Program-made: the position numbers and the translations under genes | Shown: positions 1,773 through 23,940 of the stretch, piece by piece | How positions within the stretch are numbered: the first letter of the stretch is position 1 | Layout: every line of letters starts with the position of its first letter | Notes under the pieces: generated by a model | The model's database searches: none | Seen by the model: the letters and a program-made list of their open reading frames with translations, nothing else | What the model was told of the DNA's origin: nothing | Origin: Escherichia coli | GTDB taxonomy: Bacteria > Pseudomonadota > Gammaproteobacteria > Enterobacterales > Enterobacteriaceae | DNA: 64,000 nucleotides | Assembly: GCF_024223415.1 (NCBI RefSeq) | Contig: NZ_CP100500.1 | Reading direction: 5' to 3' (one strand)

Positions 1773-1774
1773 CC

Positions 1775-2551: not shown

Positions 2552-2569
2552 CGGCTGACCCCGTCAGAA

Positions 2570-2639
2570 GGCGGCGTGCCGGGCGTTCCGGTTACGGTTT
2601 TCCGTTCCCCTTACACCCGGCACCCACCGCCTTTTTTTT
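2570..2639 (+). terminator. Candidate hairpin plus T9 tract between gpM-like and gpL-like genes (attenuator or terminator)
   Basis: Imperfect inverted repeat ggcggcgtgccggg / ccggcacccaccgcc followed by ttttttttt at 2632-2639. Confidence 0.25.
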
Positions 2640-2654
2640 CTGAAGGAGCGATTT

Positions 2655-5172: not shown

Positions 5173-5187
5173 CACGCGGAGAATGTT

Positions 5188-6769: not shown

Positions 6770-6772
6770 ATC

Positions 6773-7669
6773 ATGCCTTCCGTTGACCTGTCACAGTTAC
6801 CGGAACCGGCCATCATCGCGCAGCCGGATTTTGAGTCCATCCTGGCAGACATTAAAACCATGATGGTGAGCTCCTTCCCGGAAGAATACCGCGCCGCCGT
6901 CACCCGTGCCCTTACTCTGGAATCCGAGCCATTGAACATCATTTCCCAGGCCATGGCCTTTCGTGAAATGCTGCTTCGCCAGCGCATCAATGAAGCCGCC
7001 CGCGCCTGCATGCTCAGCCACAGCCGGGGCAGTGACCTGGACAATCTGGCCGCCAACAACAACACCCGCCGCCTGGTCATTCATCCGGCCACTGATACCA
7101 CGGAAGCAGTGATGGAAAGCGACACATCGCTGCGTCTGCGTGCCCAGTCAGCCTGGGACGGCCTGAGTGTGGCCGGACCGTCCGGCGCGTATGAGTATTT
7201 TGCCCGGAGCGCAAGCGGTCTTGTCCGTGATGCGCGCGCCATCAGCCCGTCACCGGCCACAGTCACCGTCTCCATCCTGTCAGCAGACGGTGACGGCACC
7301 GCCGGTGAGGCGTTACTGAACACGGTGCGCACCGCCCTGAATGCCGAGAACGTGCGCCCGGTTGCCGACCGCCTGACTGTGCAGAGTGCTACCATCGTGA
7401 ACTGGGTAATGGAAGCGAAGCTGTATTTTTATCCAGGGCCGGAGTCTGAACCCATGCTTGCGGCCGCTGACGCCGCTTTCCGTGCATGGCTGGCAGACCA
7501 GGGCCGTATCGGTCAGGACGTGGCCCTGTCAGCCATCACTGCAGCGCTGCATGTTCACGGTGTCCAGCGCGTTGAGGTCATAAAACCCACGCAGAACATC
7601 ACCATCAGTGACACTCAGGCAGCCAGATGTACCACATTCAGCATCAGCGAAGGAGGACGCAATGAGTGA
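6773..7669 (+). CDS. Baseplate assembly protein J (P2 gpJ-like)
   Basis: 298-aa ORF following W. Confidence 0.7.
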   Translation: MPSVDLSQLPEPAIIAQPDFESILADIKTMMVSSFPEEYRAAVTRALTLESEPLNIISQAMAFREMLLRQRINEAARACMLSHSRGSDLDNLAANNNTRRLVIHPATDTTEAVMESDTSLRLRAQSAWDGLSVAGPSGAYEYFARSASGLVRDARAISPSPATVTVSILSADGDGTAGEALLNTVRTALNAENVRPVADRLTVQSATIVNWVMEAKLYFYPGPESEPMLAAADAAFRAWLADQGRIGQDVALSAITAALHVHGVQRVEVIKPTQNITISDTQAARCTTFSISEGGRNE

Positions 7670-8225
7670 CAGGAAAAAAACAGACAGCGCACAGCACAGT
7701 ACATCACTGCTTCCACCGTCCGCAGGGCCATTCATGCGCGCCACAGAGGCGACAGGAGTACGCATCAGTACCATACCGGTGGACGCCGACACCCTGTGGT
7801 CGCCGGACCGCTGCCCTGCTCACCTCCTGCCCTACCTTGCATGGGCATGTTCCGTTGACAGCTGGGACCGCAACTGGCCGGAAGAGACCAGGCGACAGGT
7901 GATTCGGGACGCATGGATGATACATCGCCACAAAGGGACCATCAGTGCACTCCGCCGCATCGTTGAACCACTGGGCTACCTCATCCGTGTATCAGAATGG
8001 TGGGAGTTTGACGGCTCGCCCGGGACCTTCACCATTGAGATTGGCACACTTGAAACCGGAGTAAGTGAAGAGCTGCATGAAGAAATGGAGCGTCTGATTG
8101 CCGATGCGCGCCCCGTCAGCCGCCACCTCGTGGGGCTTAGTATCATCCAGGAAATACACGGTGCCATTTACGCCGCTGCCGCAGGTTACGACGGCGACAT
8201 CATCACCATTTACCCGGAAGACTGA
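7662..8225 (+). CDS. Baseplate/tail protein I (P2 gpI-like)
   Basis: ATG 7662 with AGGAGGA upstream, overlaps J stop; 187 aa. Confidence 0.65.
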   Translation: MSDRKKTDSAQHSTSLLPPSAGPFMRATEATGVRISTIPVDADTLWSPDRCPAHLLPYLAWACSVDSWDRNWPEETRRQVIRDAWMIHRHKGTISALRRIVEPLGYLIRVSEWWEFDGSPGTFTIEIGTLETGVSEELHEEMERLIADARPVSRHLVGLSIIQEIHGAIYAAAAGYDGDIITIYPED

Positions 8226-8228
8226 ACC

Positions 8229-10463
8229 ATGAGCACGAGAAAATTCAGAACCCTTATCACCGACATCGGGCTGGCAAAGCTGGCCGCAACAACGGCGCCT
8301 GGCGGTAGACCTGTACGCCTTACGCACATGGCTGTAGGGGACGGCAATGGAGAGCTTCGTCAGCCGCAGAAAAACCAGACATCGCTTTACAATGAGGTTT
8401 GGCGCCAGTCTGTCAACCGCGTCTTCACCGACCCGGAGAACCCGAACCGCCTCATCGCCGAACTGGTCATTCCTCCTGAAACCGGCGGATTCTGGGTGCG
8501 TGAAATTGGTGTGTTTGATGATACAGGTACAATGATTGCAGTAGGAAATACCGCTGAAAGTTACAAGCCCACCAGAGAGGAAGGTTCAGGGCGGGCGCAG
8601 ATATTCCGTGCAGTAATCACCGTCACCTCCGACGCCGTGGTGGAACTGGTCATGGACACAACAACAATTCTGCCGACCACGGACTACATTGATGAGAAAA
8701 TAGCGGAACACGCACGTTCCCGTAACCACCCTGACGCGACACTGACAGAAAAAGGATTCACCCAACTGAGCAGCGCCACAAACAGCACCTCTGAAACACT
8801 GGCCGCCACACCGAAGGCCGTCAAGGCTGCATATGACCTTGCAGCCGGTAAAGCACCCGCCAGCCACACCCACCCGTGGAATCAGATAACAGGTGTGCCA
8901 TCAGCCTCGCTGACGGCAAAAGGCACCGTACAGCTGAGCAGTGCCACAAACAGTGAGTCAGAGACTGAGGCCGCCACCCCCAAAGCGGTTAAAGCCTTAC
9001 ACGATATGGTGACGAGCAAGTATACAGGACAGGATGCAACCACCGGACGCAAAGGCATCGTACAGCTGAGCAGCGCCACAAACAGCAATTCCGAAACACT
9101 GGCGGCCACACCGAAGGCAGTAAGTGATGCACTGAGCATGGCGTTCGTGAAGCCAACAACATCCCTGGGGGAAACAGACCTGAACACTCTGGGGAGTAAG
9201 GAAGACGCGGGAGATTATTACCAGCAGAGTGACTCAGGTGCGAGAACAGACAGAAACTATCCTGTAGAGAAGGCAGGAGAGTTACGCATCCGTGTTGGTG
9301 CATGGGGATTCTGCCAGCATGAATACACGAGCTGGGATCCGCCACGAAAATTTATCAGGACAGTTACCGGAAACTTTAACGGTAACGGCCCATGGTCAGA
9401 GTGGGTGGAGGTGACAAACACAGATGCAACAACTGGACGCAAAGGCATCGTACAGCTGAGCAGCGATACAAACAGCAATTCCGAAACGCTGGCGGCCACA
9501 CCAAGAGCCGTCAAGGCTGCATATGACCTTGCAGCCGGTAAAGCACCCGCCAGCCACACCCACCCGTGGAATCAGATAACAGGTGTGCCATCAGCCTCGC
9601 TGACGGCAAAAGGCACCGTACAGCTGAGCAGTGCCACAAACAGTGAGTCAGAGACTGAGGCCGCCACCCCCAAAGCGGTTAAAGCCTTACACGATATGGT
9701 GACGAGCAAGTATACAGGACAGGATGCAACCACCGGACGCAAAGGCATCGTACAGCTAAGCAGCGCCACAAACAGCAATTCCGAAACGCTGGCGGCCACA
9801 CCAAAAGCTGTTAAAGCTGCGTATGACCTTGCCAACAGCAAAGCCTCGGCAGCCCACACTCATCGCTGGGCTCAGATCACAGACGCCCCTGTTTTTTCGT
9901 CTGTTGCCCGCGTCATCATGGGTAAACAAAGCATAAAAGATATTCTTGATTACCTTGGTTTAGGAGAAGGCTCGACGCTGCCAGTTGGCGTACCCGTTCC
10001 GTGGCCTTCGTCAAGACCACCTGAGGGGTGGTTACAGTGCAACGGTGCCGCATTCACGCGTACAAAATACCCAAAACTGGCGGTGGCCTACCCTGACCTC
10101 AGGCTACCAGATTTGCGCGGGGAATTTATTCGTGGATGGGATGACCTGCGAATGATTGACAGGGGACGCTTATTGTTATCCACACAGGAAGCAACATATA
10201 TTTGTACCGCCATACAGGCGTACCACGGCGTAGCGGGAGGTGCAGATATTCAGGCAGGGATTTCATTTGCATCACATGATAACGACATCATAAACATAAC
10301 CCCTGATCAACCCAGAACCGGTAACGGCATCCTGTACGGCACAAAACCAGTTGACAGATGGGCAATAGCCAGAGCCGGTAAGCTGGTGAGTAATGAAAAA
10401 GACAGATGGATAGCGATCAGACCGCGCAATATCGCTTTTAATTATATTGTGAGGGCAGTTTAA
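8229..10463 (+). CDS. Tail fibre protein (P2 gpH-like) with internal repeats
   Basis: 744 aa; three copies of motif TGRKGIVQLSSATNSNSETLAATPKAVK typical of phage tail-fibre repeats; followed by tail fibre assembly gene. Confidence 0.8.
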   Translation: MSTRKFRTLITDIGLAKLAATTAPGGRPVRLTHMAVGDGNGELRQPQKNQTSLYNEVWRQSVNRVFTDPENPNRLIAELVIPPETGGFWVREIGVFDDTGTMIAVGNTAESYKPTREEGSGRAQIFRAVITVTSDAVVELVMDTTTILPTTDYIDEKIAEHARSRNHPDATLTEKGFTQLSSATNSTSETLAATPKAVKAAYDLAAGKAPASHTHPWNQITGVPSASLTAKGTVQLSSATNSESETEAATPKAVKALHDMVTSKYTGQDATTGRKGIVQLSSATNSNSETLAATPKAVSDALSMAFVKPTTSLGETDLNTLGSKEDAGDYYQQSDSGARTDRNYPVEKAGELRIRVGAWGFCQHEYTSWDPPRKFIRTVTGNFNGNGPWSEWVEVTNTDATTGRKGIVQLSSDTNSNSETLAATPRAVKAAYDLAAGKAPASHTHPWNQITGVPSASLTAKGTVQLSSATNSESETEAATPKAVKALHDMVTSKYTGQDATTGRKGIVQLSSATNSNSETLAATPKAVKAAYDLANSKASAAHTHRWAQITDAPVFSSVARVIMGKQSIKDILDYLGLGEGSTLPVGVPVPWPSSRPPEGWLQCNGAAFTRTKYPKLAVAYPDLRLPDLRGEFIRGWDDLRMIDRGRLLLSTQEATYICTAIQAYHGVAGGADIQAGISFASHDNDIINITPDQPRTGNGILYGTKPVDRWAIARAGKLVSNEKDRWIAIRPRNIAFNYIVRAV
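8817..9067 (+). repeat. Direct repeat copy 1 inside tail fibre gene (identical to 9507-9757)
   Basis: Lines 8821-9060 are base-for-base identical to 9511-9750; offset 690 bp, in frame. Confidence 0.9.
9507..9757 (+). repeat. Direct repeat copy 2 inside tail fibre gene
   Basis: Same as above; first mismatch at about 9758. Confidence 0.9.
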
Positions 10464-11074
10464 TGAGTAACACTGCAGTTCTGGATGAAAACGGTATCGC
10501 CACTTTCGCAGGCGATATCACTGTATATCACTATGATGAGGAAACCCGGGAATACACCTCATCCTCTGTGGAGTATCTGGCCCTGGGGGTGGGTACCCCG
10601 GCACATTCATGCGCCGATGCCCCGCCAGAGGCAATGCCGGGTTACGTGATTTGCCGGACGTCCACGCTGGACGGGTGGGAGTATGTCCCCGATCATCGTG
10701 GAGAGACGGTATACAGCACAGAGAACGGTAATCCGGTCCAGATTACCCAACCAGGTGACTACCCGGAAGGGACAACGACAAAACAGCCTGCCACACCATG
10801 GGATACCTGGAACGGTGAGGCGTGGGTAACCGATACAGAACGGCAGCAAGCCGAAGAGCTGGAGGTTGCCAGACAGCAACGCAAGGAACGGGTGGATCAG
10901 GCGATGAAGTCCATCGACCTCATCAACCTTAAGTTGCGGGCAGGTCGCAGTCTGACACCAGAAGAAACGGCAAAACTGAATGCCGTGCTGGATTATATCG
11001 ACGAGCTGAACGCACTGGATATCAGCACGGAGCCTGAAATAAGCTGGCCGGAAACACCACCAGAAATGGAATGA
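10463..11074 (+). CDS. Tail fibre assembly protein (Tfa/gpG-like)
   Basis: 203 aa immediately after tail fibre gene (ATG overlaps stop). Confidence 0.65.
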   Translation: MSNTAVLDENGIATFAGDITVYHYDEETREYTSSSVEYLALGVGTPAHSCADAPPEAMPGYVICRTSTLDGWEYVPDHRGETVYSTENGNPVQITQPGDYPEGTTTKQPATPWDTWNGEAWVTDTERQQAEELEVARQQRKERVDQAMKSIDLINLKLRAGRSLTPEETAKLNAVLDYIDELNALDISTEPEISWPETPPEME

Positions 11075-11117
11075 GCGGGGAAAAGGAACGGGCATTCATA
11101 AATAATTCATCATGCAG

Positions 11118-11137
11118 GTGCCGCAAGAATGCGGCAC
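11118..11137. terminator. Hairpin between convergent G-like and U-like genes
   Basis: Perfect inverted repeat gtgccgca agaa tgcggcac in the 70-bp gap between convergent genes. Confidence 0.3.
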
Positions 11138-11144
11138 ATTACCT

Positions 11145-11633
11145 TCACATCAGATCATTTACGCCGCTTACTGTGGTATTCCAGACCGAACTTAACTTCC
11201 CTTTCATTCCCGAAAGCATATCAGACACCGGTGACGAGGCCATACTCTCCCGCAAATCCTCATCACAGCGTTCCAGACTGACAGTGAACTCAATTTTTTT
11301 GGCCTTACCGTGGCGGTCAAGTTCGCTTCGCGTTGTGCGGACAGCCGTTATCACATACATGCCGTATATCTGCCCCACACCGTCAATCAGCGGCCATGGG
11401 CGACCAGTGTAAGCCTGCGTCGTTAAAAGGCTGAGGGAAACCTCACCGCCGGTAATTTCGGGATAAAGCACACCGGACAACGTGATCTGGTCGTCACCCG
11501 CCCCGATATACTGCCAGCTGGCCGAACGATTGATGCGTTCATTTTTAACGTGGCGCCAGGTTTTATTATGTTGCAGTTGTTGATGAGGCAGCGTACGCAA
11601 CTCAAAAACAAACATGCCGTAAATCATCATCAT
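11145..11633 (-). CDS. Tail protein U (P2 gpU-like)
   Basis: 162 aa; downstream of tape measure gene on minus strand. Confidence 0.6.
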   Translation of the reverse strand: MMMIYGMFVFELRTLPHQQLQHNKTWRHVKNERINRSASWQYIGAGDDQITLSGVLYPEITGGEVSLSLLTTQAYTGRPWPLIDGVGQIYGMYVITAVRTTRSELDRHGKAKKIEFTVSLERCDEDLRESMASSPVSDMLSGMKGKLSSVWNTTVSGVNDLM

Positions 11634-11644
11634 GCGAGGTACTC

Positions 11645-14600
11645 CTAATCTCTGTCACGGAAACTACCGACTGTCTGGCGGATACGGCGTTCCATTTCCG
11701 CACGGACGGCATCACCCACCATTTTTGCCAGTTCGCGCGGGTTTTGCGTGTGAACATCATGCAGGTGAATATGCAGTTCGCCAGTTAATCCCCATGGTGC
11801 CGCCTCACTCTGGCGCGGTCGGGGCGATGCGGGGGATATGGGCTGGCGCACAGCCTCAACCACCGGACGGGATGTTGCCGCCATCACTGGTGTCATTAGC
11901 GGGGAGAACGTCGGCATGACATCGTGAGTCATAACCGGTTTGATCACCGGCGGAACCACTGGCGTAATATTACCGGACAGTACCGGACGGACGACCGGAG
12001 GAATAACCGGCACATTATTCACGGACACCACCGGCTTCACGACCGGCGACACGTTCGCCGTGGTGGATATCAGCGGCGAAACACTGACAGGCGGTGGCGC
12101 TGGCAGCGGTGGCAACGAAGGCACACTGACCGACGGCACCTGCGGCAGTCTGACAGGTGGCTCACTGACACTACCCGGTAACAGGGAAGCTGCGCGGTTA
12201 AAGCGTTCCTCCTTCCACTCACCACGAACGGCCAGCGCTTCCGGCAGGTTTTTAAAGATAATATCGCCGGGACCAGCGCGTTTTTTCGCCTGTTTCGCCT
12301 CATCCAGCAGACCACCGGTGTTATCGACGATTTTGTTCAGGCGGCGCATAGTGCCGGTATTCTCCCCCGTCAGGGGTGGTTGCCCCCCTTTGGGTTTTTC
12401 GCCGTATTTTTTATCCTCGTCCTTTTTCGGCGGATTAATGACGTTAACATCCGCCAGAAGCATGGCAGCTTTCTCGTTCAGCAACTCCTTCTGTTTTAGT
12501 TCTTCCGCTTTTTTCCGGGCGCGCTCAACCGCTGACGGAATCAGCCCGAGTTTTTCCAGCACCCGGGTTAATGAGTCAATCAGCAGCGTAACCGGACCGG
12601 TCACCAGATTGCTGATAAACTCCCCGACCTTCTGCCCGAACGTCCGCCCGGCTTCCGTGCACTTGTCCAGCTCATCCTTTGTTGTGCTTACCGGCGCGAA
12701 CAAATCCACGAACCACTGCCACACACGCCCGATTGTCTGCCCGACATACTCAAACAATGGTCCCAGTGGTGCCACAGCCTCGCGCAGTGGCGTAAGCCCC
12801 TGCCACAGGCCGGACAAGAACCCGCCCACGACAGCCTTCAGCTGGTCCCAGTGCCGCCAGATAAGCACTGCCGCACCGACCAGTGTCGCCACCACAAGGC
12901 CCACCGGACTTAACAGAAAACCCAGCGCCCCGCCAAGTGCGCCCACCGCACCACTCACCATCCCCCACAGTGCGGGCAGACCTGACAGTCTGAGCGCCAG
13001 TATTCCGATACCGCGCCCCAGTGAAATCAGTGCGCCGCCAGGTGAAGTGAACGCAGCCAGCAGACCACCACGCAGCGCGCCAAGTCCCGCCTGCACACCA
13101 CGAAGCCGCCCCGCAACTACGCCCAGCAGTGCAGCAAACCGTCCGGCACCGGAGGTGATACCGACAAACAGCACGCGCCAGCCACCGATACCGCCCAGCG
13201 GACCACCGAGTACGCCGCGCAGCTGCGTCAGTAACGGCAGCGCACGACCGAGGCCGGATGTGCCGGTCAGCAGGGCAAACCCAAGACGCAGTTTTGCCAG
13301 CGGCCCCATCAACACACCAGTGGCAAGTGACAGCGCCCCCATGGCCGCAACCGCAGCCAGCAGTACACCACCGGCAATCAGCAGTTGTTTTGTCAGTTCA
13401 GGGTGCGCCTGAGCCAGCGCGGTGACTTTCGCAATAACCCGGGTGAACGACTGCGTGACAGAACGCAGCGGCCCGTCAACGAGGTCAGCGATACGGATAC
13501 GCAGTCCTTCCCATGCGCTGTTCAGTGATTTCAGGTCACCGTCCAGGTTATCAACCATAACACGGGCAGTCTGATTAAGTTCCCCGGTGGCCAGTTCAAT
13601 CTCCTGCGTAAGACGGGGAAGATTATTTTCCCCCGCCGCAGTGACAAGATTCATCAGGGAAACATAGGACTCCTGCCCGGCAATAGCCCTGAAAAAGGAG
13701 ACCTGCGCGGCATTACCGTATTTTCGGGTGGCCTGGTACAGCTCATTCAGGATATTTTCCATCCGGCGCATGTTCCCGTAAGCATCCTGCGTCTCCACGC
13801 CAAGCTCTTTCAGTGCCATTGCAGCGGCCTTCGGCGGATCAACCAGACGTGACAGACTGGCACGCAGCGCCGTACCTGCATCACTTCCACGGATCCCCAC
13901 ACTGCCAAGGACACCCGTCATGGCTGCCGCCTGTTCAAGGGACAGGCCAAGTGAAGCTGCAACCGGCCCCGTGTACTTCATGGTTTCACCCAGCGAACGG
14001 AGATCCGTATTGGTTCGTGTGAAGGTGGCGGCCAGCGTGTCACCCACGCGATCCATCTGGTCAGCGGACAGACCAAACTGTGTGAGGATATTCGAACTGA
14101 TATCGGCAGTCTGTCCCAGGTCCATCCCTGCAGCCATTGCCAGATCAAGCACGCCGGGTAGCGCCGCCTGTATGGCCTGTGGTGTGAAGCTGGCCATGGC
14201 AAGGAACGCCTGACCGCTGGCAGCATCACCGGCGGTAAACTGCGTTTCAGAGCCCAGCTTAATGGCCTGTTCGCGCAGCGCCTTAAACTGCGGACTGTTT
14301 TTGTCAATACGGGTCAGCGCCTGGACGCGCGACATCTCCTTACCAAAACTGACCGCCGGTTGCAGGAAACGTCCGGCCGCATAGCCGCCTGCCGCCGCCG
14401 TACCAACCGCCGTAAGTCCGACCGTTTTAAGTTTTCCCGCCGTCTCCTGAGCACGGGAATATTGCTGGCGTGCCTGCGTGACACGTGCCAGCGCCTGCCG
14501 TTCGCGTTCCAGCTGGTCGTTGTATTGCTGTGTTCGCCGTATGGCCTGTTGAATGGTGTTGTCACTGCCGGAAAGCGCAATACCGTGGCGCCGCAGCTCA

Positions 14601-14992
14601 CCACCCAGTTCGCGCATTCGCTGAACTTCACGCGCACGGACCTCATTGAGACGCTCAAGTTTGAGGCTCAAATCGTTCATCAGCTTTTTCTGTTTGTCAG
14701 ACAGCACGGTTCCGGCGCGCTGAATTTGCTGAAGTGCGCTTAACTGGCGTTGCGCCCTGACAATGCCGTTTCCGGCCTTGTTTGCAGCCTCGCGGGCGCG
14801 ATCAAATGAACGGGCGTGGCGTTCCAGGTTTTTGATCGCACCCTGCGTTCTCTGTATGGAGTCGCCAAGCTGGCCCATCATGCGACGGGCGTTTTCGGTG
14901 GGACGGGTCAGCCTGTCAACAGCGCTGAAGGCGACCCGTATATCAAGCGTTTTCATGCTCTGCGTTCCCGCTGCGAAGGGCCGCCCGCTCAC
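11645..14992 (-). CDS. Tail tape measure protein (P2 gpT-like), with Pro/Val-rich C-terminal repeats
   Basis: 1115-aa ORF, long helical Ala/Gly-rich regions; alternative ATG start at 14956. Confidence 0.8.
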   Translation of the reverse strand: MSGRPFAAGTQSMKTLDIRVAFSAVDRLTRPTENARRMMGQLGDSIQRTQGAIKNLERHARSFDRAREAANKAGNGIVRAQRQLSALQQIQRAGTVLSDKQKKLMNDLSLKLERLNEVRAREVQRMRELGGELRRHGIALSGSDNTIQQAIRRTQQYNDQLERERQALARVTQARQQYSRAQETAGKLKTVGLTAVGTAAAGGYAAGRFLQPAVSFGKEMSRVQALTRIDKNSPQFKALREQAIKLGSETQFTAGDAASGQAFLAMASFTPQAIQAALPGVLDLAMAAGMDLGQTADISSNILTQFGLSADQMDRVGDTLAATFTRTNTDLRSLGETMKYTGPVAASLGLSLEQAAAMTGVLGSVGIRGSDAGTALRASLSRLVDPPKAAAMALKELGVETQDAYGNMRRMENILNELYQATRKYGNAAQVSFFRAIAGQESYVSLMNLVTAAGENNLPRLTQEIELATGELNQTARVMVDNLDGDLKSLNSAWEGLRIRIADLVDGPLRSVTQSFTRVIAKVTALAQAHPELTKQLLIAGGVLLAAVAAMGALSLATGVLMGPLAKLRLGFALLTGTSGLGRALPLLTQLRGVLGGPLGGIGGWRVLFVGITSGAGRFAALLGVVAGRLRGVQAGLGALRGGLLAAFTSPGGALISLGRGIGILALRLSGLPALWGMVSGAVGALGGALGFLLSPVGLVVATLVGAAVLIWRHWDQLKAVVGGFLSGLWQGLTPLREAVAPLGPLFEYVGQTIGRVWQWFVDLFAPVSTTKDELDKCTEAGRTFGQKVGEFISNLVTGPVTLLIDSLTRVLEKLGLIPSAVERARKKAEELKQKELLNEKAAMLLADVNVINPPKKDEDKKYGEKPKGGQPPLTGENTGTMRRLNKIVDNTGGLLDEAKQAKKRAGPGDIIFKNLPEALAVRGEWKEERFNRAASLLPGSVSEPPVRLPQVPSVSVPSLPPLPAPPPVSVSPLISTTANVSPVVKPVVSVNNVPVIPPVVRPVLSGNITPVVPPVIKPVMTHDVMPTFSPLMTPVMAATSRPVVEAVRQPISPASPRPRQSEAAPWGLTGELHIHLHDVHTQNPRELAKMVGDAVRAEMERRIRQTVGSFRDRD

Positions 14993-15469
14993 GCCAGGCG
15001 ACCACCTCGCCGGGATCCATCAGGAAGATTTCAGCGGGAGACCAGTTGAAAATAACGGCGATATCCGCCACAAAGTCTTCAATGTGCTCAAAGGGCACGA
15101 CGGTTATCAGCCTGCCGTCGCCGCCCCGCTCTTCCCGCCAGAGTCCTGACCGGCCAAAAAATTAACCGCCACCCCGCACAGCTGAATAAAATCAGCGGAC
15201 CCCATGCGCTTAAGCAGAACCTCGTCCAGTCGCGGCGAAGTGACGCGCGGGAGTAACTCAAACATCGCGTCCGTTTTCATGTTCAGCACGTCAAGCAGTG
15301 ACAGCCCGCGCAGTGAACCGGCCTGCTGTACAGCAGGCGTGATTTCCACATACGTGATTTTTTTGTTACCGAGCACAAGGGGCGTTTTCAGCGTCACGCC
15401 GCGCTCACTGGTCACGTCCGCCGCATCAGCACCGTCAGTAACAGGGGCAACAACCGGATTTTCTTTCAT
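14943..15469 (-). CDS. Tail assembly chaperone E+E' (predicted -1 frameshift product)
   Basis: After slip at T TTT TTG the -1 frame stays open for about 65 codons to TGA near 14943, overlapping tape measure start. Confidence 0.4.
15107..15469 (-). CDS. Tail assembly chaperone E (P2 gpE-like)
   Basis: 120-aa ORF between tube and tape measure genes. Confidence 0.6.
   Translation of the reverse strand: MKENPVVAPVTDGADAADVTSERGVTLKTPLVLGNKKITYVEITPAVQQAGSLRGLSLLDVLNMKTDAMFELLPRVTSPRLDEVLLKRMGSADFIQLCGVAVNFLAGQDSGGKSGAATAG
15155..15161 (-). other. Slippery heptamer T TTT TTG (programmed -1 frameshift site)
   Basis: Plus strand caaaaaa = minus ttttttg, in phase X XXY YYZ with codons N-F-L of chaperone E. 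Confidence 0.5.
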
Positions 15470-15519
15470 GCATAAAACCTCAAATCAGGGGGCGACGCCG
15501 CGCGCCGCCGTGGGAAACA

Positions 15520-16038
15520 TTAACCACCAAGACCAATCGCCGAGCGCACGCGGTCCGGGAAGACGTTTTTGCCGTCCTTGCGTTCGATGTGGTTCAGTAA
15601 ATCAATCTCCAGCACCGGACGGTCGTTAATGCTGAGTTTGTAGTAGGTACTCCTGACCGCATAGGTGTGAGACGTGACCTCACCCTGTTTTGCCTCCCCC
15701 GTATCAATTTCCGTCACGCGGCCGCGAAGCTCAATTTCATACAGGTCGCTCTGCTCTTCATCGTTGTAGTACTCACCGACAAAGCGCAGCAGCGTACCGT
15801 CGATCGTGCCGCCGTACTTAAGGAACAGTTCGCGGGTCGGCCCGCCCATGGTGAAACTCGCATCCAGCGCGCCGTCATCCAGACCAAGGTCGATATTCAC
15901 CGCGCCGGCCATACCACCACCGCGATAGGCTTCCGTTTTACGGGTCAGTTTGGGGGGCGTGAAGCCGGTCACCCTGCCAATCTGGTTCACCCCGTCAGTA
16001 AACAGCGTGAACACCCTGAGATTTTTTGGTACGGCCAT
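15520..16038 (-). CDS. Major tail tube protein (P2 gpFII-like)
   Basis: 172 aa, immediately downstream of sheath gene (TAATG overlap). Confidence 0.8.
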   Translation of the reverse strand: MAVPKNLRVFTLFTDGVNQIGRVTGFTPPKLTRKTEAYRGGGMAGAVNIDLGLDDGALDASFTMGGPTRELFLKYGGTIDGTLLRFVGEYYNDEEQSDLYEIELRGRVTEIDTGEAKQGEVTSHTYAVRSTYYKLSINDRPVLEIDLLNHIERKDGKNVFPDRVRSAIGLGG

Positions 16039-17321
16039 TAAGCACCTCCAAGCGTCGCAAATGCAGGACCAAAGAATTCATCAGTAAACGTCTGGTAAAG
16101 TTCCATATCCTCAAGCGGCGGAACGGGCGTGTACTTGTAGCGGATACGCACGCGTCCCTGACGAAGTTCCGTGGTGCTGTTATCCACCACGTCATACCAG
16201 CACTCCGCACCAATGAGACGTCCTGACGTAACCAGCGCATCCAGTTTTGCGCGAATTGCGCTTAACACGTCTTTCACATTAGCAGGGGTCAGCGGGGCAT
16301 CAATCGTTTCAAACTGCGCTTCCGCAATGGAATCAGCCAGCACCTGAGCGGTTCGCGTGTACACCTCAAAGATATACGCCTTCGTTTCCGGCGTACGGTT
16401 GCCCCAGAAGCGGAAACCGTTACGGCAAATGATGGTAGTGATTTCCTTGTTGTTGAGATTGTTGGCATCGCTGTCTTCGGACTGAAGGGACCAGAACACC
16501 GGGCTGGAAATACCCAGCACATTTGTTACCGGCACGTTGGACAGCGATTTATGCCAGCCCTGTTCGTGGTCAATACGTGCACGTAAACCGCAGGCGTACG
16601 CCGCAGCCGGGAAGACCTCATTAGCGCCGGATTTCGGGTTATAGGCGATGAAGTCAGGCCAGAGCAGCATAAGTTCGCGCTCGTTAAATCTGGCGCGGTA
16701 GCTGATTGCATCAGCGGGCTTCTTGCAGTTGTGACAGCCCGCGTAGACAAATGCGCGAAGTTTTTCTGCAATTACACACAGGGATTTTGTGACAGCTTCA
16801 GTATCCAGTCCGGGAGCTGCGATGATGCGCGGACGGTAACCGATGGCATCATCCTGTTCAGCTATCAGAAGTGCATACATACCGGTATAATTACCGTCGC
16901 CATCCGTGCCACCAATGACATACTGGTCCTGCGTTTTGTGTGGGTATACAGGATGTGCATCTTCAGACTCATCAATACCAAAAAATGCCCTGTCTTCAGG
17001 ATCCAGATGACCGAATGATGTAACTCCTGTATCCGGGGCGCCCTGAGAACTGGTATCAGGAACGCGCACCACAATCACCTTCGTGCTCACCTGGTCGGCG
17101 ACAGCCTTAAGCGATTTGTAAAGCGTCCCCTTTGTGCCGGCCTTACCCAGCACATCACTGACGCGGGTCAGCAGTGTGGGTTTGTTCAGCGGGAACAGAG
17201 TTTCATCCGCGTCATCTGCCGTAGCCACAATACCAATAACACTGGAATCCACATCATTAATGGCGGTGGCAAGGCCGGTACTTTCCCTTACGCGCGCACC
17301 ATGAAAGCGTGTTTCACTCAT
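16038..17321 (-). CDS. Tail sheath protein (P2 gpFI-like)
   Basis: 427 aa from ATG at 17321 (MSETRFHGARV...); track ORF extends further upstream without support. Confidence 0.8.
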   Translation of the reverse strand: MSETRFHGARVRESTGLATAINDVDSSVIGIVATADDADETLFPLNKPTLLTRVSDVLGKAGTKGTLYKSLKAVADQVSTKVIVVRVPDTSSQGAPDTGVTSFGHLDPEDRAFFGIDESEDAHPVYPHKTQDQYVIGGTDGDGNYTGMYALLIAEQDDAIGYRPRIIAAPGLDTEAVTKSLCVIAEKLRAFVYAGCHNCKKPADAISYRARFNERELMLLWPDFIAYNPKSGANEVFPAAAYACGLRARIDHEQGWHKSLSNVPVTNVLGISSPVFWSLQSEDSDANNLNNKEITTIICRNGFRFWGNRTPETKAYIFEVYTRTAQVLADSIAEAQFETIDAPLTPANVKDVLSAIRAKLDALVTSGRLIGAECWYDVVDNSTTELRQGRVRIRYKYTPVPPLEDMELYQTFTDEFFGPAFATLGGA

Positions 17322-17433: not shown

Positions 17434-17451
17434 GCCGCTGCGGTGCATGAA
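17434..17451 (-). promoter_or_regulatory. TGT-N12-ACA dyad, candidate Ogr-dependent late promoter element for the sheath operon
   Basis: tgtCTCCTGACAGCGaca, centre about 55 nt upstream of a transcript start that would give a roughly 65-nt leader to the sheath ATG. Confidence 0.35.
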
Positions 17452-17482
17452 ACCATTACAGAACGCACCAGGAGAGAACACC

Positions 17483-18574
17483 ATGAAAGAGCTGTCAGTT
17501 ACCGTTCCGTCACCGGATATCGACATCACCATCAACAACAACACACTGGCAAACCTCACAGAGCGACTCATGACGCTGACCCTGACGGATAACCGGGCCT
17601 TTGAGGCAGACCGCGTCACCCTCACCCTTGACGATACGGACGGGCAGTTACAGTTGCCACCACGTGGCGCACGCCTGAGAGTGATGATTGGCTGGCGAGG
17701 AGAATCACTGGTTAACAAGGGCACCTACGTCGTTGATGAGGTTGCGTGGGAAGGACCTCCAGATAAACTGATCATCACCGCCAGCAGCGCAGATTTTCGG
17801 GAAGAGTTCAACGTGAGGCGGGAGGTATCCTGGCACGACGTGACCGTAAAACAGGTTGTGTCAGCCATCGCTCACCGCTACGGCCTGAAGACACAGATAA
17901 GCGAAATCCTCATGGATATCGAAATTGACCACGCTGACCAGACCGAAGAGAGCGATATATCCTTCCTGACCCGCATGGCTGAAATGCTGGGTGCGATTGC
18001 CACCGTAAAAAACGGCAGCCTGTTATTCATTCTGCCGGGTGGCGGAACCGGGCCGGACGGAAGAGCCCTGCCTTCGTTCGCCATTACCCGCAGCAGCGGC
18101 GACAGTCACCGCTTTCGCATTGCTGACCGTGATGCGTATACGGGGGTCCGGGCGCACTGGCTCGATCTGAAGTTCGGGCAAAAGAAAAAAGTGAACGTGA
18201 AGCGACGCAGGGAAGCCGGGAAACAGAAACAGGAGAAGAGCAGCAGCCGGGAGGGTGATTACATGGAAGGCGCGGAAGGGAACGTCTACGTTCTGCGCAG
18301 GACTTACCAGAATGAAGAAACCGCACGACGTGCAGCTGCGGCAAAGTGGCAGGAGTTACAGCGGGGAGCAGCGGCATTCTCCATCACTCTGGCACGGGGT
18401 CGTGCCGACCTGTACCCCGAAATGCACGGCAGGGTAACAGGTTTTAAAAGCGAGGTGGACAATCAGGACTGGATTATTGCCAGGGTGGAGCACATCATAG
18501 ATGAAAGCGGCTTCACCACACAACTGGAGCTGGAAGCGAAAATCCCCGAATGGATAGCAGATTCAGGCGGATAA
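17483..18574 (+). CDS. Tail protein D (P2 gpD-like late control protein)
   Basis: ATG 17483 with GGAGAG upstream; 363 aa. Confidence 0.7.
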   Translation: MKELSVTVPSPDIDITINNNTLANLTERLMTLTLTDNRAFEADRVTLTLDDTDGQLQLPPRGARLRVMIGWRGESLVNKGTYVVDEVAWEGPPDKLIITASSADFREEFNVRREVSWHDVTVKQVVSAIAHRYGLKTQISEILMDIEIDHADQTEESDISFLTRMAEMLGAIATVKNGSLLFILPGGGTGPDGRALPSFAITRSSGDSHRFRIADRDAYTGVRAHWLDLKFGQKKKVNVKRRREAGKQKQEKSSSREGDYMEGAEGNVYVLRRTYQNEETARRAAAAKWQELQRGAAAFSITLARGRADLYPEMHGRVTGFKSEVDNQDWIIARVEHIIDESGFTTQLELEAKIPEWIADSGG

Positions 18575-18617: not shown

Positions 18618-18869
18618 ATGTTCCGTTGTCCCCTATGCGGTGCATCCGCACGTATCCGCACCAGTCGCAATGAAAATGATTCAGGCACAGTTCGCCTGAA
18701 GTACTACCAGTGCAATAACCTCGAATGCGGGATCGGCTTTACCACACTGGAGGGTTTTAACAAATTCACATCAAAACGCGCCCCGTCGCCGCAGGGTACA
18801 GAGCGGATACCGTGGGAAGATTTTCCGGGATCTCACAGGGGGAATACTCAGATTAATCTTGATATTTAA
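18618..18869 (+). CDS. ogr: Ogr/Delta-family zinc-finger late-gene activator
   Basis: 83 aa; CPLC...C(x4)C arrangement MFRCPLCGASARIRTSR...YYQCNNLECG; last gene before prophage junction. Confidence 0.75.
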   Translation: MFRCPLCGASARIRTSRNENDSGTVRLKYYQCNNLECGIGFTTLEGFNKFTSKRAPSPQGTERIPWEDFPGSHRGNTQINLDI

Positions 18870-18980
18870 GAACAATAATCAGGTTGAGAGGACATCATAA
18901 GGCAAGTAGATTAACGGCAGATACTTTCCCGCAACCACGGGCAAGTATTTAATTATCCATGATGAAATATGACCTAAATT

Positions 18981-19014
18981 GTTTTTTGCCCGCCGGAAAG
19001 CGGGCATTTTTTTA
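18981..19014 (+). terminator. Intrinsic terminator, candidate prophage attR core
   Basis: gcccgc cggaaa gcgggc hairpin flanked by T runs on both sides; same element recurs 7 more times downstream. Confidence 0.6.
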
Positions 19015-19227
19015 TTCTTTTGTGGTTATGGGGTCATCAGGAACCACGTGCAGATTATATTTTTGTTTTTTTGGCGTTCCTCCGGCAGCAACGAGTTCAT
19101 CAATAAGACACTGACACGCCTGAACATCCCGGGCATGTCTTAGTTTCACCTTTATTGATTTAACCTTATCCTCACCGGAGGAGAAATGCAGTTCAATCTC
19201 AATATCGTTTCTTCGGAACAATCTCAT
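19012..19227 (-). CDS. Hypothetical small protein (71 aa) in module M
   Basis: ATG at 19227 preceded by AGGGGG; intact only in this copy, truncated or degenerate in the other two M copies. Confidence 0.25.
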   Translation of the reverse strand: MRLFRRNDIEIELHFSSGEDKVKSIKVKLRHARDVQACQCLIDELVAAGGTPKKQKYNLHVVPDDPITTKE

Positions 19228-19398
19228 ACGCCCCCTGAATATATCAGAAATACTAGTATCGAAAAATGAGAAAACAGTTAGACAGGAGAAACATATTAAC
19301 ACAAATCATTTATACCTATAGATGAAATTATAATTTCATTCATGAATATGATAGATAACTATATTGTGAACAAAATGAAAAATGGCTAAATTAAAAAT

Positions 19399-19478
19399 GG
19401 GCATGGAGGAATGCCCGGTTATCAATATAATGTGACGTAGATCATTGTTTTGCCCGCCGGAGAGCGGGCATTTTTTTT
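19399..19478 (+). ncRNA. Candidate small RNA S1
   Basis: Promoter-like TTGTGA(19364)-N17-TAAATT(19387), about 80-nt unit with internal hairpin gggcatggaggaatgccc, ends in intrinsic terminator. Confidence 0.35.
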
Positions 19479-19678
19479 GCGCCTGCCATCGAGGCGCCTT
19501 CCCTGGCGCACACAAAGCAGCCCTGATTTTCCATGAAAACTTCAGGGTTGAGCTGCGGGCACAAAGTGAGTAGATTAGCTACGGGTACCTCCCCCTGACA
19601 ACAGGAAGGGTGTCCATTATCCATGATATACAAACGAAAAGTCTTGTTTTTTGCCCGCCGAAGCGCGGGCATTTTTTT
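19479..19678 (+). ncRNA. Candidate structured RNA U1 (about 200 nt)
   Basis: Bounded by two terminators; internal hairpins gcgcct..aggcgc, ccctga..tcaggg, ccttcc..ggaagg; 4 copies in window. Confidence 0.3.
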
Positions 19679-19723
19679 ATGCATCAGACAAGATACAGCC
19701 CACCCCAACTGACACCTGAAATA

Positions 19724-19752
19724 TTGCCGCAACAAAAAGAAACAGTTAAATT
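19724..19752 (+). promoter_or_regulatory. Sigma70-like promoter for hok1 transcript
   Basis: TTGCCG-N17-TAAATT, about 145 nt upstream of hok1 ATG. Confidence 0.4.
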
Positions 19753-19804
19753 ACGCGCGGGTGCCTTTCGGCTGATGGCCGGAGGGAAAACCTGAAGGCC
19801 GGAT

Positions 19805-20038
19805 GTGGAAAGGCCCCGGAAAACATTTCTGTTTAACCGAGGCCCTAACCGCATTACCTTGACAAGTGAAAGGTTAGCGCCTCTCCGGAAAAGGAGCAAG
19901 TGCTATGTCGCAAAAATCGCTTACGGCCATCACGTTCTGCGTGACGGCAATCCTCATCATCTGGATATTGCACGGTTCGCTGTGCGAAATACGGATGAGC
20001 TTCTGGGGAGCGGAGTTTGCGGCGTTCTTACAATGTAA
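19805..20038 (+). CDS. mok-like overlapping reading frame
   Basis: 77-codon frame overlapping hok1 in a different frame, as in hok/mok loci. Confidence 0.3.
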   Translation: MERPRKTFLFNRGPNRITLTSERLAPLRKRSKCYVAKIAYGHHVLRDGNPHHLDIARFAVRNTDELLGSGVCGVLTM

Positions 20039-20045
20039 GAAGTAA
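19905..20045 (+). CDS. Hok/Gef-family type I toxin (46 aa)
   Basis: MSQKSLTAITFCVTAILIIWILHGSLCEIRMSFWGAEFAAFLQCKK: TM helix plus SLCEI..AAFL.CK signature; AAGGAG 8 nt upstream. Confidence 0.6.
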   Translation: MSQKSLTAITFCVTAILIIWILHGSLCEIRMSFWGAEFAAFLQCKK

Positions 20046-20133
20046 GGAAACCGCGACGGGGGAGCAATCCCCCGTCAATCGGTTGCCAGGGTAAGGTCGA
20101 TAAGGCACCCTATCTCACAGACATGAACAAACA

Positions 20134-20167
20134 AACCCGCAGCATAAAAACTGCGGGTTTTCTTTTT
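20134..20167 (+). terminator. Intrinsic terminator after hok1
   Basis: cccgcag cataaaaa ctgcggg followed by ttttcttttt. Confidence 0.5.
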
Positions 20168-20571
20168 GGTGTCCTCACCGACTTGAAACAGTGATCAGAC
20201 TATAAGACAAAGCCCGCAATGTTGCGGGCTTACTCTACCTCTCGAAAATGTGGTCACTGCGTGGACATACGCTGATACAAATCCTTTATATCAATAAATT
20301 AAATCTTTGTTTTTTTCATCAACAATGATTTAACCTTATCCTCACCGGAGGAGAAATGCAGTTCAATCTCAATATCGTTTCTGTGGAACAGCCTCATAAG
20401 ACAACCTCCTGAATTCATCAGAAACACAGTCAACTGAAAACCAGAAAGCAGACAAACAGTGGACACACATTAATACAAATCATTTATACCTATAGATGAA
20501 ATTGCAGTTTCATCTATAACATGACAGGTAACAATATTGTGAAAAAACTCAAAACTCGTTAGATTAAAGAC

Positions 20572-20651
20572 GGACAGAGCAATGCTACTTTATCAATAAC
20601 ATGTAACCTGTACTTCCTTATTTTGCCCGCCGAAGCACGGGCATTTTTTTT
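20572..20651 (+). ncRNA. Candidate small RNA S2
   Basis: TTGTGA(20537)-N17-TAGATT(20560), terminator at 20625-20651; central region differs from S1. Confidence 0.3.
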
Positions 20652-20849
20652 GCGCCTGCCATCGAGGCGCCTTCCCTGGCGCACACAAAGCAGCCCTGAT
20701 TTTCCATGAAAACTTCAGGGTTGAGCCAAAAGCACAAAGACAGTAGATTAACCACGGGTGCCTTCCACCTGACAACAGGAAGGGTGTCCAGTATCAATGA
20801 CAGACAACTCACATTGCTGTTTTGCCCGCCGGAAAGCGGGCATTTTTTT
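20652..20849 (+). ncRNA. Candidate structured RNA U2
   Basis: Copy of U unit ending in terminator 20821-20849. Confidence 0.3.
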
Positions 20850-21219
20850 ATTCTTTTGTGGTTATTGGGTCATCAGGAACAACATGCAGATTATGCTTTG
20901 ATTTTTTTGGTGTTATTACAGCAGCAACGAGTTTATTAATAAGACACTGACATGCCTGAACATCCCTGACATATCATAATATCACTTTATTTTTTTAGCT
21001 TGTCCTTTCTGGAGCAGAAATATCTCAACATCGTTTCTGTGGAACAACCTCATTTGCCCTTGAATGTATCATAAATATCAGCATCGGAAAACCAACAGCA
21101 ATACAGAAGAAACATGTTAATGCAAATCACTTATACCTATAGATGAAATTACAGTTTTGTTCATAAATATGATAAGTAACTATATTGTGAATAAAATGAA
21201 AACTAGCTAAATTAAACGT

Positions 21220-21300
21220 GGGCATGGTGGAATGCCTCGTAATCAATAATACATGATCCGTACTTCCTTGTTTTGCCCGCCGGAAAGCGGGCATTTTTTT
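21220..21300 (+). ncRNA. Candidate small RNA S3
   Basis: TTGTGA(21185)-N17-TAAATT(21208), hairpin gggcatggtggaatgcc, terminator to 21300. Confidence 0.3.
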
Positions 21301-21497
21301 GGCGGTTACCATCGCCTCACCTTCCTGGTTCACATGAAGCAACCCTGATTTTCCATGAAAACTTCAGGGTTGAGACAAAAGCACAAAGACAGTAGATTAA
21401 CCACGGGTACCTTCCACCTGACAACAGGAAGGCTGTCCAGTATCAATGACAGACAACTCACATTGCTGTTTTGCCCGCCGGAAAGCGGGCTTTTTTT
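21301..21497 (+). ncRNA. Candidate structured RNA U3
   Basis: Copy of U unit, terminator 21469-21497. Confidence 0.3.
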
Positions 21498-21698
21498 GGC
21501 AGTTATCATAGCCGCACCTTCCTGGCACATATGAAGCAACCCTGATTTTCCATGAAAACTTCAGGGTTGAGACAAAAGCACAAAAACAGTAGATTAACCA
21601 CGGGTGCCTGCCACCTGACAACAGGAAGGGTGTCCATTATCCATGATATACAAACGAAAAGTCTTGTCTTTTGCCCGCCAAAGCGCGGGCATTTTTTT
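21498..21698 (+). ncRNA. Candidate structured RNA U4 (hok-associated subtype)
   Basis: Copy of U unit with the same 3' end as U1, terminator 21671-21698. Confidence 0.3.
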
Positions 21699-21909
21699 AT
21701 GCATCAGACAAGATACAGCCCACCCCAACTGACACCTGAAATATTGCCGCAACAAAAAGAAACGGGTGCCTTTCGGCTGATGGCCGGAGGGAAAACCTGA
21801 AGGCCGGATGTGGAAAGGCCCCGGAAAACATCTGTGTTTAACCGAGGCCTGACCCTTCCTACCGTGACAAGTGGAAGGTTAGCGCCTCTTTGTAAAAGGA
21901 GCAAGCGCT

Positions 21910-22050
21910 ATACCGCAAAAAACGATTATTGTTGGCATTTTATGCCTGACAATAACCCTGGTCATCTGGATGGTCCACGATTCGTTATGTGAATTCAGCT
22001 TTGATATCTGGGGAGCGCGTTTTGCGGCGTTCTTGCAGTGTAAACCGTAA
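21910..22050 (+). pseudogene. Hok-family toxin remnant: start codon ATA, promoter -10 deleted
   Basis: Frame encodes PQKTIIVGILCLTITLVIWMVHDSLCEFSFDIWGARFAAFLQCKP after AAGGAG, but first codon is ATA and an in-frame TAG lies 10 codons upstream. Confidence 0.55.
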
Positions 22051-22200
22051 GAAACCGCAGCGGGGGAGAAATTCCCCGCTATCCGGTTGTTGGGGTGGGC
22101 CGATATGGCGCCCTTTCCCTGTAGAGACAAAACAAAAAACCAGATTTGCCCGCCATTGAGAGGGCTTTTTTGTCACCCTCACCAGTGAGGGCATCATCAT

Positions 22201-22428
22201 TCAGAGGCGCGTAAGCCACCCGGCGTTAACATCCTGCCTGTCAACCCTGGCCGCAGAGTCTGAACGGCAGGTACCGGAAGGAGTACCAAAAACATCCCTG
22301 ACAAGTTCCGCCACCTTCCCGATATCATCAGGTGTCACATTCCTCACCTCGGCAGTGATCCGTGGCGTACCATCATCGTTAACAAGAGTGGCTTTAAAGC
22401 TGGTGCGAAGGGAAAACAACATCAACAT
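22201..22428 (-). CDS. Hypothetical protein (75 aa)
   Basis: ORF only; no recognisable motif. Confidence 0.2.
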   Translation of the reverse strand: MLMLFSLRTSFKATLVNDDGTPRITAEVRNVTPDDIGKVAELVRDVFGTPSGTCRSDSAARVDRQDVNAGWLTRL

Positions 22429-22626
22429 CCCCTCCCTTTGGTTCGTTGCACTGACGGCACGACACCATCAGGAAAAAGAAAAGCCCACAACGTCAGTATT
22501 GTGGACTTTTTTCTTCAAAGATGGACATTATCTGGACACATGAAAATAAAATCCATTTATTTTCATATAGTTAAGTACCATGCAAAAGCGCCCGCAGGCG
22601 CTTTTTAGATTCAGAAAAATTAGGTA

Positions 22627-23940
<1,314 letters not shown>

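Follow-up and report, generated by a model that had tools for sequence, protein, structure and literature searches.

Why does a short minus-strand open reading frame (ORF), lying just to the right of ogr and recurring twice nearby in damaged form, look like a gene, and is it one? The original prediction for this locus, in a 64,000-nt stretch of Escherichia coli DNA (hereafter the window), described a 71-aa minus-strand ORF in a repeated module (M), together with a short plus-strand ORF, and left open which of the two, if either, was real. The minus-strand ORF is present as described, with ATG 19227 and a stop codon at 19012-19014, and AGGGGG (19231-19236) lies 3 nt upstream of its ATG. Its first codons do recur, at ATG 20397 (MRLFHRNDIEIELHFSSGEDKVKS..., 32 aa) and in a degenerate copy at ATG 21053. 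Both of these copies are more decayed than the first, as had been proposed, since the 3' part of M2 has been replaced at ~20310 by the end of a hok/sok cassette (H1), and M3 carries deletions and a stop codon. The evidence assembled below makes it probable, though well short of certain, that the 71-aa ORF descends from a 128-aa accessory ("moron") gene, a member of the family phrog_14142, and is what is left of it after 5' truncation, multiplication and continuing decay. The positions of the features under discussion are collected in Table 1.

Table 1. Positions and strands of the features discussed, in window coordinates.
Feature	Position	Strand	Remarks
gpD (P2-type tail gene)	17447-18574		Left of the 71-aa ORF
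ogr (Ogr/Delta zinc-finger gene)	18618-18869	+	71-aa ORF just to its right
Unit u0	18884-19013	+	Promoter-like TTGAGA-17-TAGATT (18884-18912), stem-loop, intrinsic terminator O1
71-aa ORF of module M1	19012-19227	-	RefSeq (PGAP) WP_001236182.1, hypothetical protein
27-aa SD-led ORF (MQFNLNIVS..., GGAGGAGAAATG)	19186-19269	+	Preceded by GGAGGAGAA
In-frame upstream extension of the 71-aa ORF	19228-19302	-	To GTG 19302 (96 aa total); contains AGGGGG
Conserved centre of module M (GGTATAAATGATTTGT...)	19262-19350	-	Palindrome ATGAAATTATAATTTCAT at 19322-19339; aligns with true attR P arms
sRNA-like unit uM1	19364-19477	+	Divergent from the ORF; TTGTGA-17-TAAATT, stem-loop 19399-19416, AU-rich linker, terminator O2
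Fossil P arm	20243-20295	-	Closes hok/sok cassette H1, next to the M2 breakpoint; E 3e-4
M2 copy	20299-20397	-	32 aa; homologous only to ~codon 26
M3 copy, degenerate	20896-21053	-	8-nt deletion, two 1-nt deletions, AGA>TGA stop
75-aa ORF	22201-22428		First gene inside attR here; unrelated to phrog_14142
Active P arm of attR	22508-22575	-	E 4.6e-10, P-arm profile search
True att core AAAAGCGCCCGCAGG	22584-22598	+	Inside the serS terminator; right prophage boundary
serS	22627-23919	-	rarA, lolA and ftsK come next in the complete genomes that match
K-12 empty site			...gacaaaaaaagcgcccgcaggcgctttttagattcag
attL beside the integrase, strain LH10-b-1			...gacaaaaaaagcgcccgcagg, then agatttaacgg
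attR	Window right end		...taccatgcaaaagcgcccgcaggcgctttttag

The comparison with protein families settled the strand. Positions 72-127 of the 128-position phrog_14142 profile (PHROGs v4) match residues 1-56 of the ORF with an E-value of 4.9e-12, and a local C-terminal HMM matches 19227-19066 with an E-value of 8e-17, so that the 71-aa ORF is a real coding sequence, far beyond chance. Judged by this homology, the minus-strand frame descends from a true coding sequence, and the ORF is the C-terminal 45% of a 128-aa family without its N-terminal half; the undecided choice between the strands thus falls to the minus strand, and the plus-strand ORF does not stand as a gene. Among 1.84 billion representatives, phmmer matches comprised E. 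coli fragments of the ORF, the proteins P0009 and P0011 (128 and 133 aa), which are 46-47% identical to it through their residues 72-125 only, and a 57-aa protein, P0010. A search with P0009, which matches the phrog_14142 profile end to end, returned ~40 clusters, nearly all of 126-130 aa and every one annotated "hypothetical". The family, with a consistent length of 126-133 aa, extends over Salmonella, Citrobacter, Enterobacter, Yokenella, Pectobacterium, Yersinia, Klebsiella/Raoultella and Kosakonia. The C-terminal 55 residues of its 128-aa members (P0009, P0040, P0046; Salmonella, Citrobacter, Enterobacter, Klebsiella) are homologous to the ORF, which differs from them in lacking the N-terminal ~60 residues, in ending with a foreign tail of ~15 aa that has no homology to the family, and in replacements at nearly invariant residues (G73R, E110Q, R111C). 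All nine positions at which this half of the family is invariant (M72, L74, D79, E81, E83, L100, R101, C109 and L112) are kept in the window.

Beyond PHROGs, neither the ORF nor the full-length family was matched by Pfam, by NCBIfam or by the defence-system models of PADLOC, and literature searches on this protein, its family and the locus returned nothing. Neither module M nor the 96-aa frame nor P0009 was matched when 50,697 GenBank phage records were searched with blastn and tblastn; as no sequenced GenBank phage isolate carries the family, its membership in phages is read from prophage contexts only. With hok/sok loci adjacent, we also considered both small ORFs as type I toxins of the Hok/Gef kind and rejected this, given that the 71-aa ORF has no Pfam match whereas the neighbouring 46-aa ORF (19905-20045) matches HOK_GEF with an E-value of 8e-7, and that the 27-aa peptide is polar. 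When AF2 was run on the C-terminal alignment, it predicted a beta-hairpin (residues 9-15 and 23-29) and a helix (32-47) with a pLDDT of 70-73, followed by a disordered tail, and the model of full-length P0009 was poor (pLDDT 56). The sequence-profile search of the PDB produced nothing below an E-value of 0.3, Foldseek with the 71-aa model nothing at an E-value below 0.2, and the fold searches yielded no credible match.

The view that one copy of the ORF is intact has to be abandoned, because M1 spans only profile positions ~62/72-127 of the 128-aa family. In alignments to the full HMM, M1 begins at position 62 (and runs to 126), M2 covers positions 68-100 and M3 positions 92-127, and an HMM of family positions 1-71 had no match on the coding strand within 18801-22700. 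All three copies have the same upstream sequence junction, which implies that the truncation predates the copying of M; consequently, the supposedly intact copy is itself a 5'-truncated fragment. The in-frame upstream extension retains weak residual homology to family positions ~62-71, and in sister prophages a 1-nt indel interrupts its frame. A further in-frame likeness upstream of M1 to positions 45-60 (CFS, LTVF), seen with tblastn and MAFFT, was discarded as not significant and unsupported by the N-terminal HMM. As for the start signals, ATG 19227 corresponds to the invariant internal Met72 of the family. The sequence at this site is gcaGGGGttattATG or gcaGAGGttattATG in the full-length genes (codons Ala-Gly/Glu-Val-Ile-Met), tcAGGAGGttgtcttATG in M2 and cAGGGGGcgtATG in M1. 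On this alignment, the SD-like run of M1 descends from the purine-rich Ala-Gly-Val codons that precede Met72 in the parent gene.

Two other short database proteins, P0010 (57 aa) and P0049 (76 aa), resemble the ORF in that their called starts fall at or near the same internal Met and their open frames cover the same domain. They lie in P4-like satellites, beside P4-type primase, integrase and delta-like genes, whereas the ORF lies in a P2-like prophage. Upstream of P0010, in frame and through stop codons, FIVTTQTRKPMRSGM corresponds to FEVATQARKLAGVIM (FIVTTQTRK versus FEVATQARK), and at the P0049 locus a stretch reading KIR, a stop codon and then SCFSANSPDMLSVMFELL (SCFSANSPD) corresponds to family positions 40-60. 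Since in-frame family codons upstream run through stops at both loci, P0010 and P0049 are pseudogenes rescued by gene callers at the internal Met, and the case for a stand-alone domain as a class is weakened accordingly. Their upstream halves are still recognisable, whereas M has lost this part by deletion.

The array region around module M is part of a P2-like prophage inserted at the serS terminator. Its DNA is carried by 30 of 5,426 complete E. coli genomes, and what it has in common with most E. coli genomes is only the last 57 nt before serS. The att core AAAAGCGCCCGCAGG is duplicated, once in attL next to int and once at 22584-22598, which places the whole interval 18870-22583, module M included, inside the prophage as phage cargo. 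An identical 71-aa ORF occurs in sister prophages located upstream of copA (L021, L022) or at the ihfA terminator (L024). There the cassette is simpler, consisting of ogr, u0, one copy of M and a pair of N units, with a terminal cargo gene (a 73-75-aa ORF or hicAB), a hairpin, a P arm and the core behind them, and these prophages stay homologous to the window as far as the last P arm, inside which the homology ends. What the window carries is an expanded version of the cassette, with three M, four N and two hok/sok cassettes, of which one hok is intact (19905-20045) and one decayed. Rfam models returned only sub-threshold sok matches in both hok loci and terminator-driven noise. The likeness of the N-unit promoter and 5' end to those of hok was dropped, being a visual resemblance for which BLAST gave no support.

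At the end of u0, beside the stop codon of the ORF, lies a hairpin (18987-19006) that had been called an att-like terminator of the ORF, and this description fails in both of its parts. It does not correspond to the att core, which in this prophage is the duplicated AAAAGCGCCCGCAGG at the serS terminator. Nor does it terminate the ORF: hairpin and T-run together form O1, the T-run stands on the plus strand only and closes the plus-strand unit, and on the minus strand it is AAAAAACAA (A's) that comes after the hairpin. The stop codon of the ORF overlaps the end of the T-run. On the minus strand beyond the ORF, a consensus scan, which is weak evidence, detected no terminator. The GCCCGCCGGAAAGCGGGC hairpin is absent from K-12-type genomes and present only in the 30 genomes with this prophage type, and one hairpin occurs in nine copies over 3.2 kb.

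Traces of attachment-site DNA were nevertheless detected within the array. A P-arm profile, for which exclusively arms from other loci were used, found three sites in the 64-kb window, namely the active P arm of attR, the fossil P arm at the end of H1 and, weakly, the centre of M2 (E 0.6). Together with the alignment of the conserved centre to true P arms, this is suggestive of the M centre being a fossil P arm that abuts the truncated gene.

The location of the full-length family provides the frame in which the ORF can be read. In every context retrieved, the full-length gene occupies the extreme edge of a P2-like prophage and reads inward, whether it is flanked by fabF and ogr (L004/L005), by raiA and phage tail genes, in which case hok lies alongside (L002, L013-15), or by yegQ/cyaR and ogr (L016-19), or follows dsbB (L012). 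As the host locus varies and the gene stays, it is phage cargo placed between ogr and attP. The order in L016 is the cyaR terminator (the classical P2 core), an A/T-rich P arm (ATAAATGGATTT plus repeated GTCCAC), a hairpin, the AAGGAGG-ATG of the gene and the converging ogr; among known systems, P2 integration at the cyaR 3' end and the ogrK remnant of K-12 come close to the present case. The window follows the same plan in that its att core is a host-gene terminator reading toward the ogr end, as for P2 at the cyaR 3' end, and a P arm with ATAAATGGATTT and repeated GTCCAC motifs is common to both sites. The cargo differs, however, since at cyaR the cargo gene comes first inside the prophage, whereas here, with the serS terminator as core, the first gene is the 75-aa ORF, which is not a phrog_14142 derivative. 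The 71-aa ORF keeps the family's orientation relative to ogr and its place toward the att-proximal end but, unlike the full-length genes, which come first inside attR and converge with ogr or hok, it is buried in the cargo 3.3 kb from the active attR. The lysogenic-conversion or moron loci of P2 (old, tin, Z/fun) are non-essential cargo whose position varies within a P2-type genome that is conserved in other respects; they occupy the old/tin or Z/fun hotspots, whereas here the cargo lies between ogr and attP. The fixed place as first gene inside attR is the sole functional clue to the parent family.

How far selection has acted on the ORF was assessed between lineages, between copies and among alleles. 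M1 is 98-100% identical between lineages and the non-coding flank equally so, and selection therefore cannot be read from between-lineage identity. Over the last 45 codons, M1 and M3 differ by 9 synonymous and 12 non-synonymous changes (dN/dS 0.40), and over the last 14 codons by three synonymous and no non-synonymous changes; with P = 0.07 in a test that randomised the placement of changes, this ratio hints at past constraint and does not prove it. The exact 71-aa protein is found on at least 998 contigs of a large protein collection, and one open 71-aa copy is present in all four lineages seen. E. coli alleles include D8N, at the family-invariant Asp79, on 256 contigs, as well as E10D at the invariant Glu81, several tail substitutions and one truncation to 49 aa. 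Slippage in an A7 run has recurred on different sequence backgrounds and gives products of 55-57 aa, and these frameshifts remove only the non-homologous tail, restoring a family-like length of 57 aa. Taken together, the changes at invariant positions and the frequent disruptive alleles suggest relaxed constraint. Regarding expression, a consensus scan of the minus strand between 19228 and 19400, again weak evidence, found no promoter-like site, and a terminator-like hairpin (19416-19399), which is the uM1 stem-loop read in reverse complement, stands upstream of the ORF on that strand. A metagenomic and IMG/VR variant (L025/L031) has AGGAGG-N7-ATG in front of the full 71 codons.

These data bear most directly on the possibility that the 71-aa ORF is a functional stand-alone protein, reduced to the C-terminal beta-beta-alpha domain of phrog_14142, translated from the former internal Met72 with the help of the SD-like run it inherited, and maintained among the prophage cargo by selection, perhaps modulating what the full-length protein of related phages does. 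We regard this as rather unlikely, although it has a substantial list of observations in its favour. All nine invariant residues are retained, Met72 is itself invariant and preceded by SD-like codons in the full-length genes, and AF2 predicts an autonomous fold with moderate confidence in the core; but D8N is common at an invariant Asp, E10D also occurs, and the two comparable short forms are demonstrable pseudogenes. The ideally spaced AGGAGG of the L025/L031 variant would suit translation from this start, and yet in M1 the SD-like run stands merely 3 nt from the ATG, behind a terminator-like hairpin and with no predicted promoter. The presence of one open copy in all four lineages, on so many contigs, is offset by a near-identity that extends equally into the non-coding flanks, and the low dN/dS, with only synonymous changes in the tail, by a test that was not significant. 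Frameshift variants do spare the homologous domain, whereas the sister copies in the same array have been left to decay. A related proposal, in which Met72 and the SD-like Ala-Gly-Val codons would be a native internal start for a short C-terminal isoform and the 71-aa ORF would have been exapted, with one working copy kept, seems to us improbable; if it were true, the short forms of the P4-like satellites would reflect the same tendency and not mere decay.

Two further readings fare worse. The plus-strand ORF with a strong SD does exist, being 27 aa long and preceded by GGAGGAGAA, and it could be argued that module M has its real gene here, the minus frame being incidental, considering that its SD is ideally spaced from the ATG and that M1 and M2 do not differ in either element. 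The SD and ATG, however, are accounted for by the opposite strand: GGAGGAGAAATGCAG is the reverse complement of the family-homologous codons CTG CAT TTC TCC TCC (LHFSS), which directly follow the conserved RNDIEIEL motif. The frame shrinks from 27 aa in M1 to 18 aa in M2 and is lost from M3 through the 8-nt deletion, no SD-led antisense ORF exists at the homologous position in five family members, and the polar 27-aa peptide has no PHROGs or NCBIfam match and is not conserved in the diverged relatives among the available sequences. On this comparison, the plus-strand ORF results from reading the conserved RNDIEIELHFSS codons on the opposite strand and is not a gene, and its standing as the true gene of the module is barely conceivable. 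It could also be held that successive prophages at the host att site left module M and its neighbours behind, with the hairpins as old att cores and the ORF as host-side or fossil-integrase-side DNA outside the present prophage. The nine hairpin copies and the P-arm-like pieces inside the array would agree with such a history, but the duplicated core together with the attL beside int puts the array inside the prophage, sister prophages have taken the same ogr-M-N-N cassette, identical ORF included, to copA and ihfA, and the hairpins are plus-strand terminators of promoter-bearing units. Hairpins as att cores of prophages stacked at the host site are ruled out by the att mapping, which leaves the host-site history very improbable; an accretion history inside the phage genome is a different matter from host-site remnants, and is possible.

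The truncated-relic reading, which we prefer, can be put as a sequence of events. The parent of M would have been an intact full-length gene ending in ...NLHVVPDDPITTKE, placed first inside attR, reading inward and converging on ogr or a hok/sok locus, as its present relatives are. In the M lineage a deletion would then have removed the gene's own RBS, the upstream hairpin and approximately the first 45-60 codons, and the same event may have fused P-arm-like DNA to mid-gene codons, a step for which the M centres are only suggestive. What remained still has a gene-like look because the invariant Met72 offers an ATG and the Ala-Gly-Val codons an SD look-alike. The truncated module was subsequently multiplied, being found once in the sister prophages and three times here, with recombination among the repeated terminators and sRNA-like units of the ogr-attR cargo as the likely cause, and the extra M copies have decayed further. 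As far as sequence can tell, the 71-aa ORF most likely makes no functional product, and any peptide made from it would be a bare beta-beta-alpha domain with a disordered tail.

Taken alone, the 71-aa ORF matters little, being one more decaying fragment at the fast-changing cargo end of a prophage. It does have a value for annotation, as WP_001236182.1, now listed as an ordinary hypothetical protein, would be better flagged as a partial phrog_14142 member, and automatic gene calling will place the start of truncated family members at this internal Met time and again. The interval between ogr and attR in these P2-like phages emerges as a variable cargo zone that holds phrog_14142 genes, hok/sok, hicAB and sRNA-like units, and that moves as a whole, with an exchange of the terminal P arm and core among the serS, copA and ihfA sites. 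The parent family, Enterobacterales-wide, always the first gene inside attR and uncharacterised, is a better experimental target than the relic, and this family and the architecture of the ogr-attR cargo are more interesting leads than the 71-aa ORF.

The cargo array carries eight plus-strand sRNA-like units of ~95-130 nt each in the window. In all eight, a promoter-like site (TTGAGA/TTGAGC/TTGTGA-N17-TAGATT/TAAATT) precedes a 5' stem-loop, and an AU-rich linker, either TATCAATGA or TATCCATGA, leads to one common intrinsic terminator, GCCCGCCGGAAAGCGGGC followed by a T-run. It is these terminators that the original prediction had labeled "att-like". The units matched no family in Rfam and were confined to the 30 E. 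coli genomes harboring this prophage type.

Features of the cargo zone and the integration sites compared
Feature	Coordinates	Strand	Remark
sRNA-like unit	18884-19013	+	promoter-like site to terminator
sRNA-like unit	19364-19477	+	promoter-like site to terminator
sRNA-like unit	~19549-19678	+	promoter-like site to terminator
sRNA-like unit	~20537-20650	+	promoter-like site to terminator
sRNA-like unit	20722-20849	+	promoter-like site to terminator
sRNA-like unit	~21186-21300	+	promoter-like site to terminator
sRNA-like unit	21370-21498	+	promoter-like site to terminator
sRNA-like unit	21567-21698	+	promoter-like site to terminator
First hok/sok cassette	19759-20170		intact hok inside
Second hok/sok cassette	21764-22172		decayed hok inside
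75-aa ORF	22201-22428	-	
Integration site, window	22584-22598		
Integration site, L023 (LH10-b-1)	~22097-22113		
Integration site, L021 (same-type prophage)	5780-5870		
Integration site, L024 (same-type prophage)	3540-3640		

The same zone contains two hok/sok cassettes, the first encoding an intact Hok of 46 aa (19905-20045; Pfam HOK_GEF, E 8e-7) and the second a decayed hok (21970-22050), closed by a terminator hairpin of the same type as in the sRNA-like units (22145-22172). In both cassettes, the Rfam sok model scored 46-48 bits, below its gathering score of 59. By eye only, the N units, the four-fold repeated units of the array, resemble in their promoter and initial ~12 nt (TAGATTAACCACGGGTGCCTTCC, 20722-20775) the promoter and 5' end of the hok mRNA of the neighboring hok/sok locus (TAAATTACGCGCGGGTGCCTTTCGG, 19727-19790), a similarity left unsupported by BLAST. 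These units may have arisen from hok loci by internal deletion.

At the end of the first cassette, a statistically supported fossil P arm, i.e., att-side DNA of a prophage right end, was detected (20243-20295, E 3e-4). As it directly adjoins the breakpoint (~20310) that truncates the phrog_14142 ORF copy of repeat module M2, the cargo zone is suggested to have grown through the joining of former prophage right ends. Among full-length proteins of this accessory family, Met72 is invariant, and in most members examined (L016, 8200-8230; L002; L012) SD-like codons (GGGG, GAGG or GGGA) lie 6-7 nt ahead of it, the L004 gene being the exception; Met72 is therefore a possible native internal start of these genes.

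In the window, the slot of phrog_14142 in other P2-like prophages, the first gene inside attR, is taken by a 75-aa ORF, preceded by a hairpin (22479-22510) of the kind found before phrog_14142 genes. This ORF had no match in Pfam, PHROG or PADLOC, is left unannotated in serS-site genomes, and is ~90% identical to WP_029490443.1, a 73-aa RefSeq hypothetical protein of copA-site prophages; in the ihfA-site prophage, hicAB takes its place.

Judged by gene content, the prophage of strain LH10-b-1 (NZ_CP100530.1, 22197-40001) is defective, since replication and head genes are missing and the tape-measure gene is frameshifted, whereas the left part of the window (1-17000) holds more structural genes. 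One phage lineage occupies three integration sites, namely the terminators of serS and ihfA and a position upstream of copA. Because the differences between these sites are limited to the last P arm, the core and the terminal cargo gene, the comparison points to integration specificity being swapped as a module at the prophage right end.
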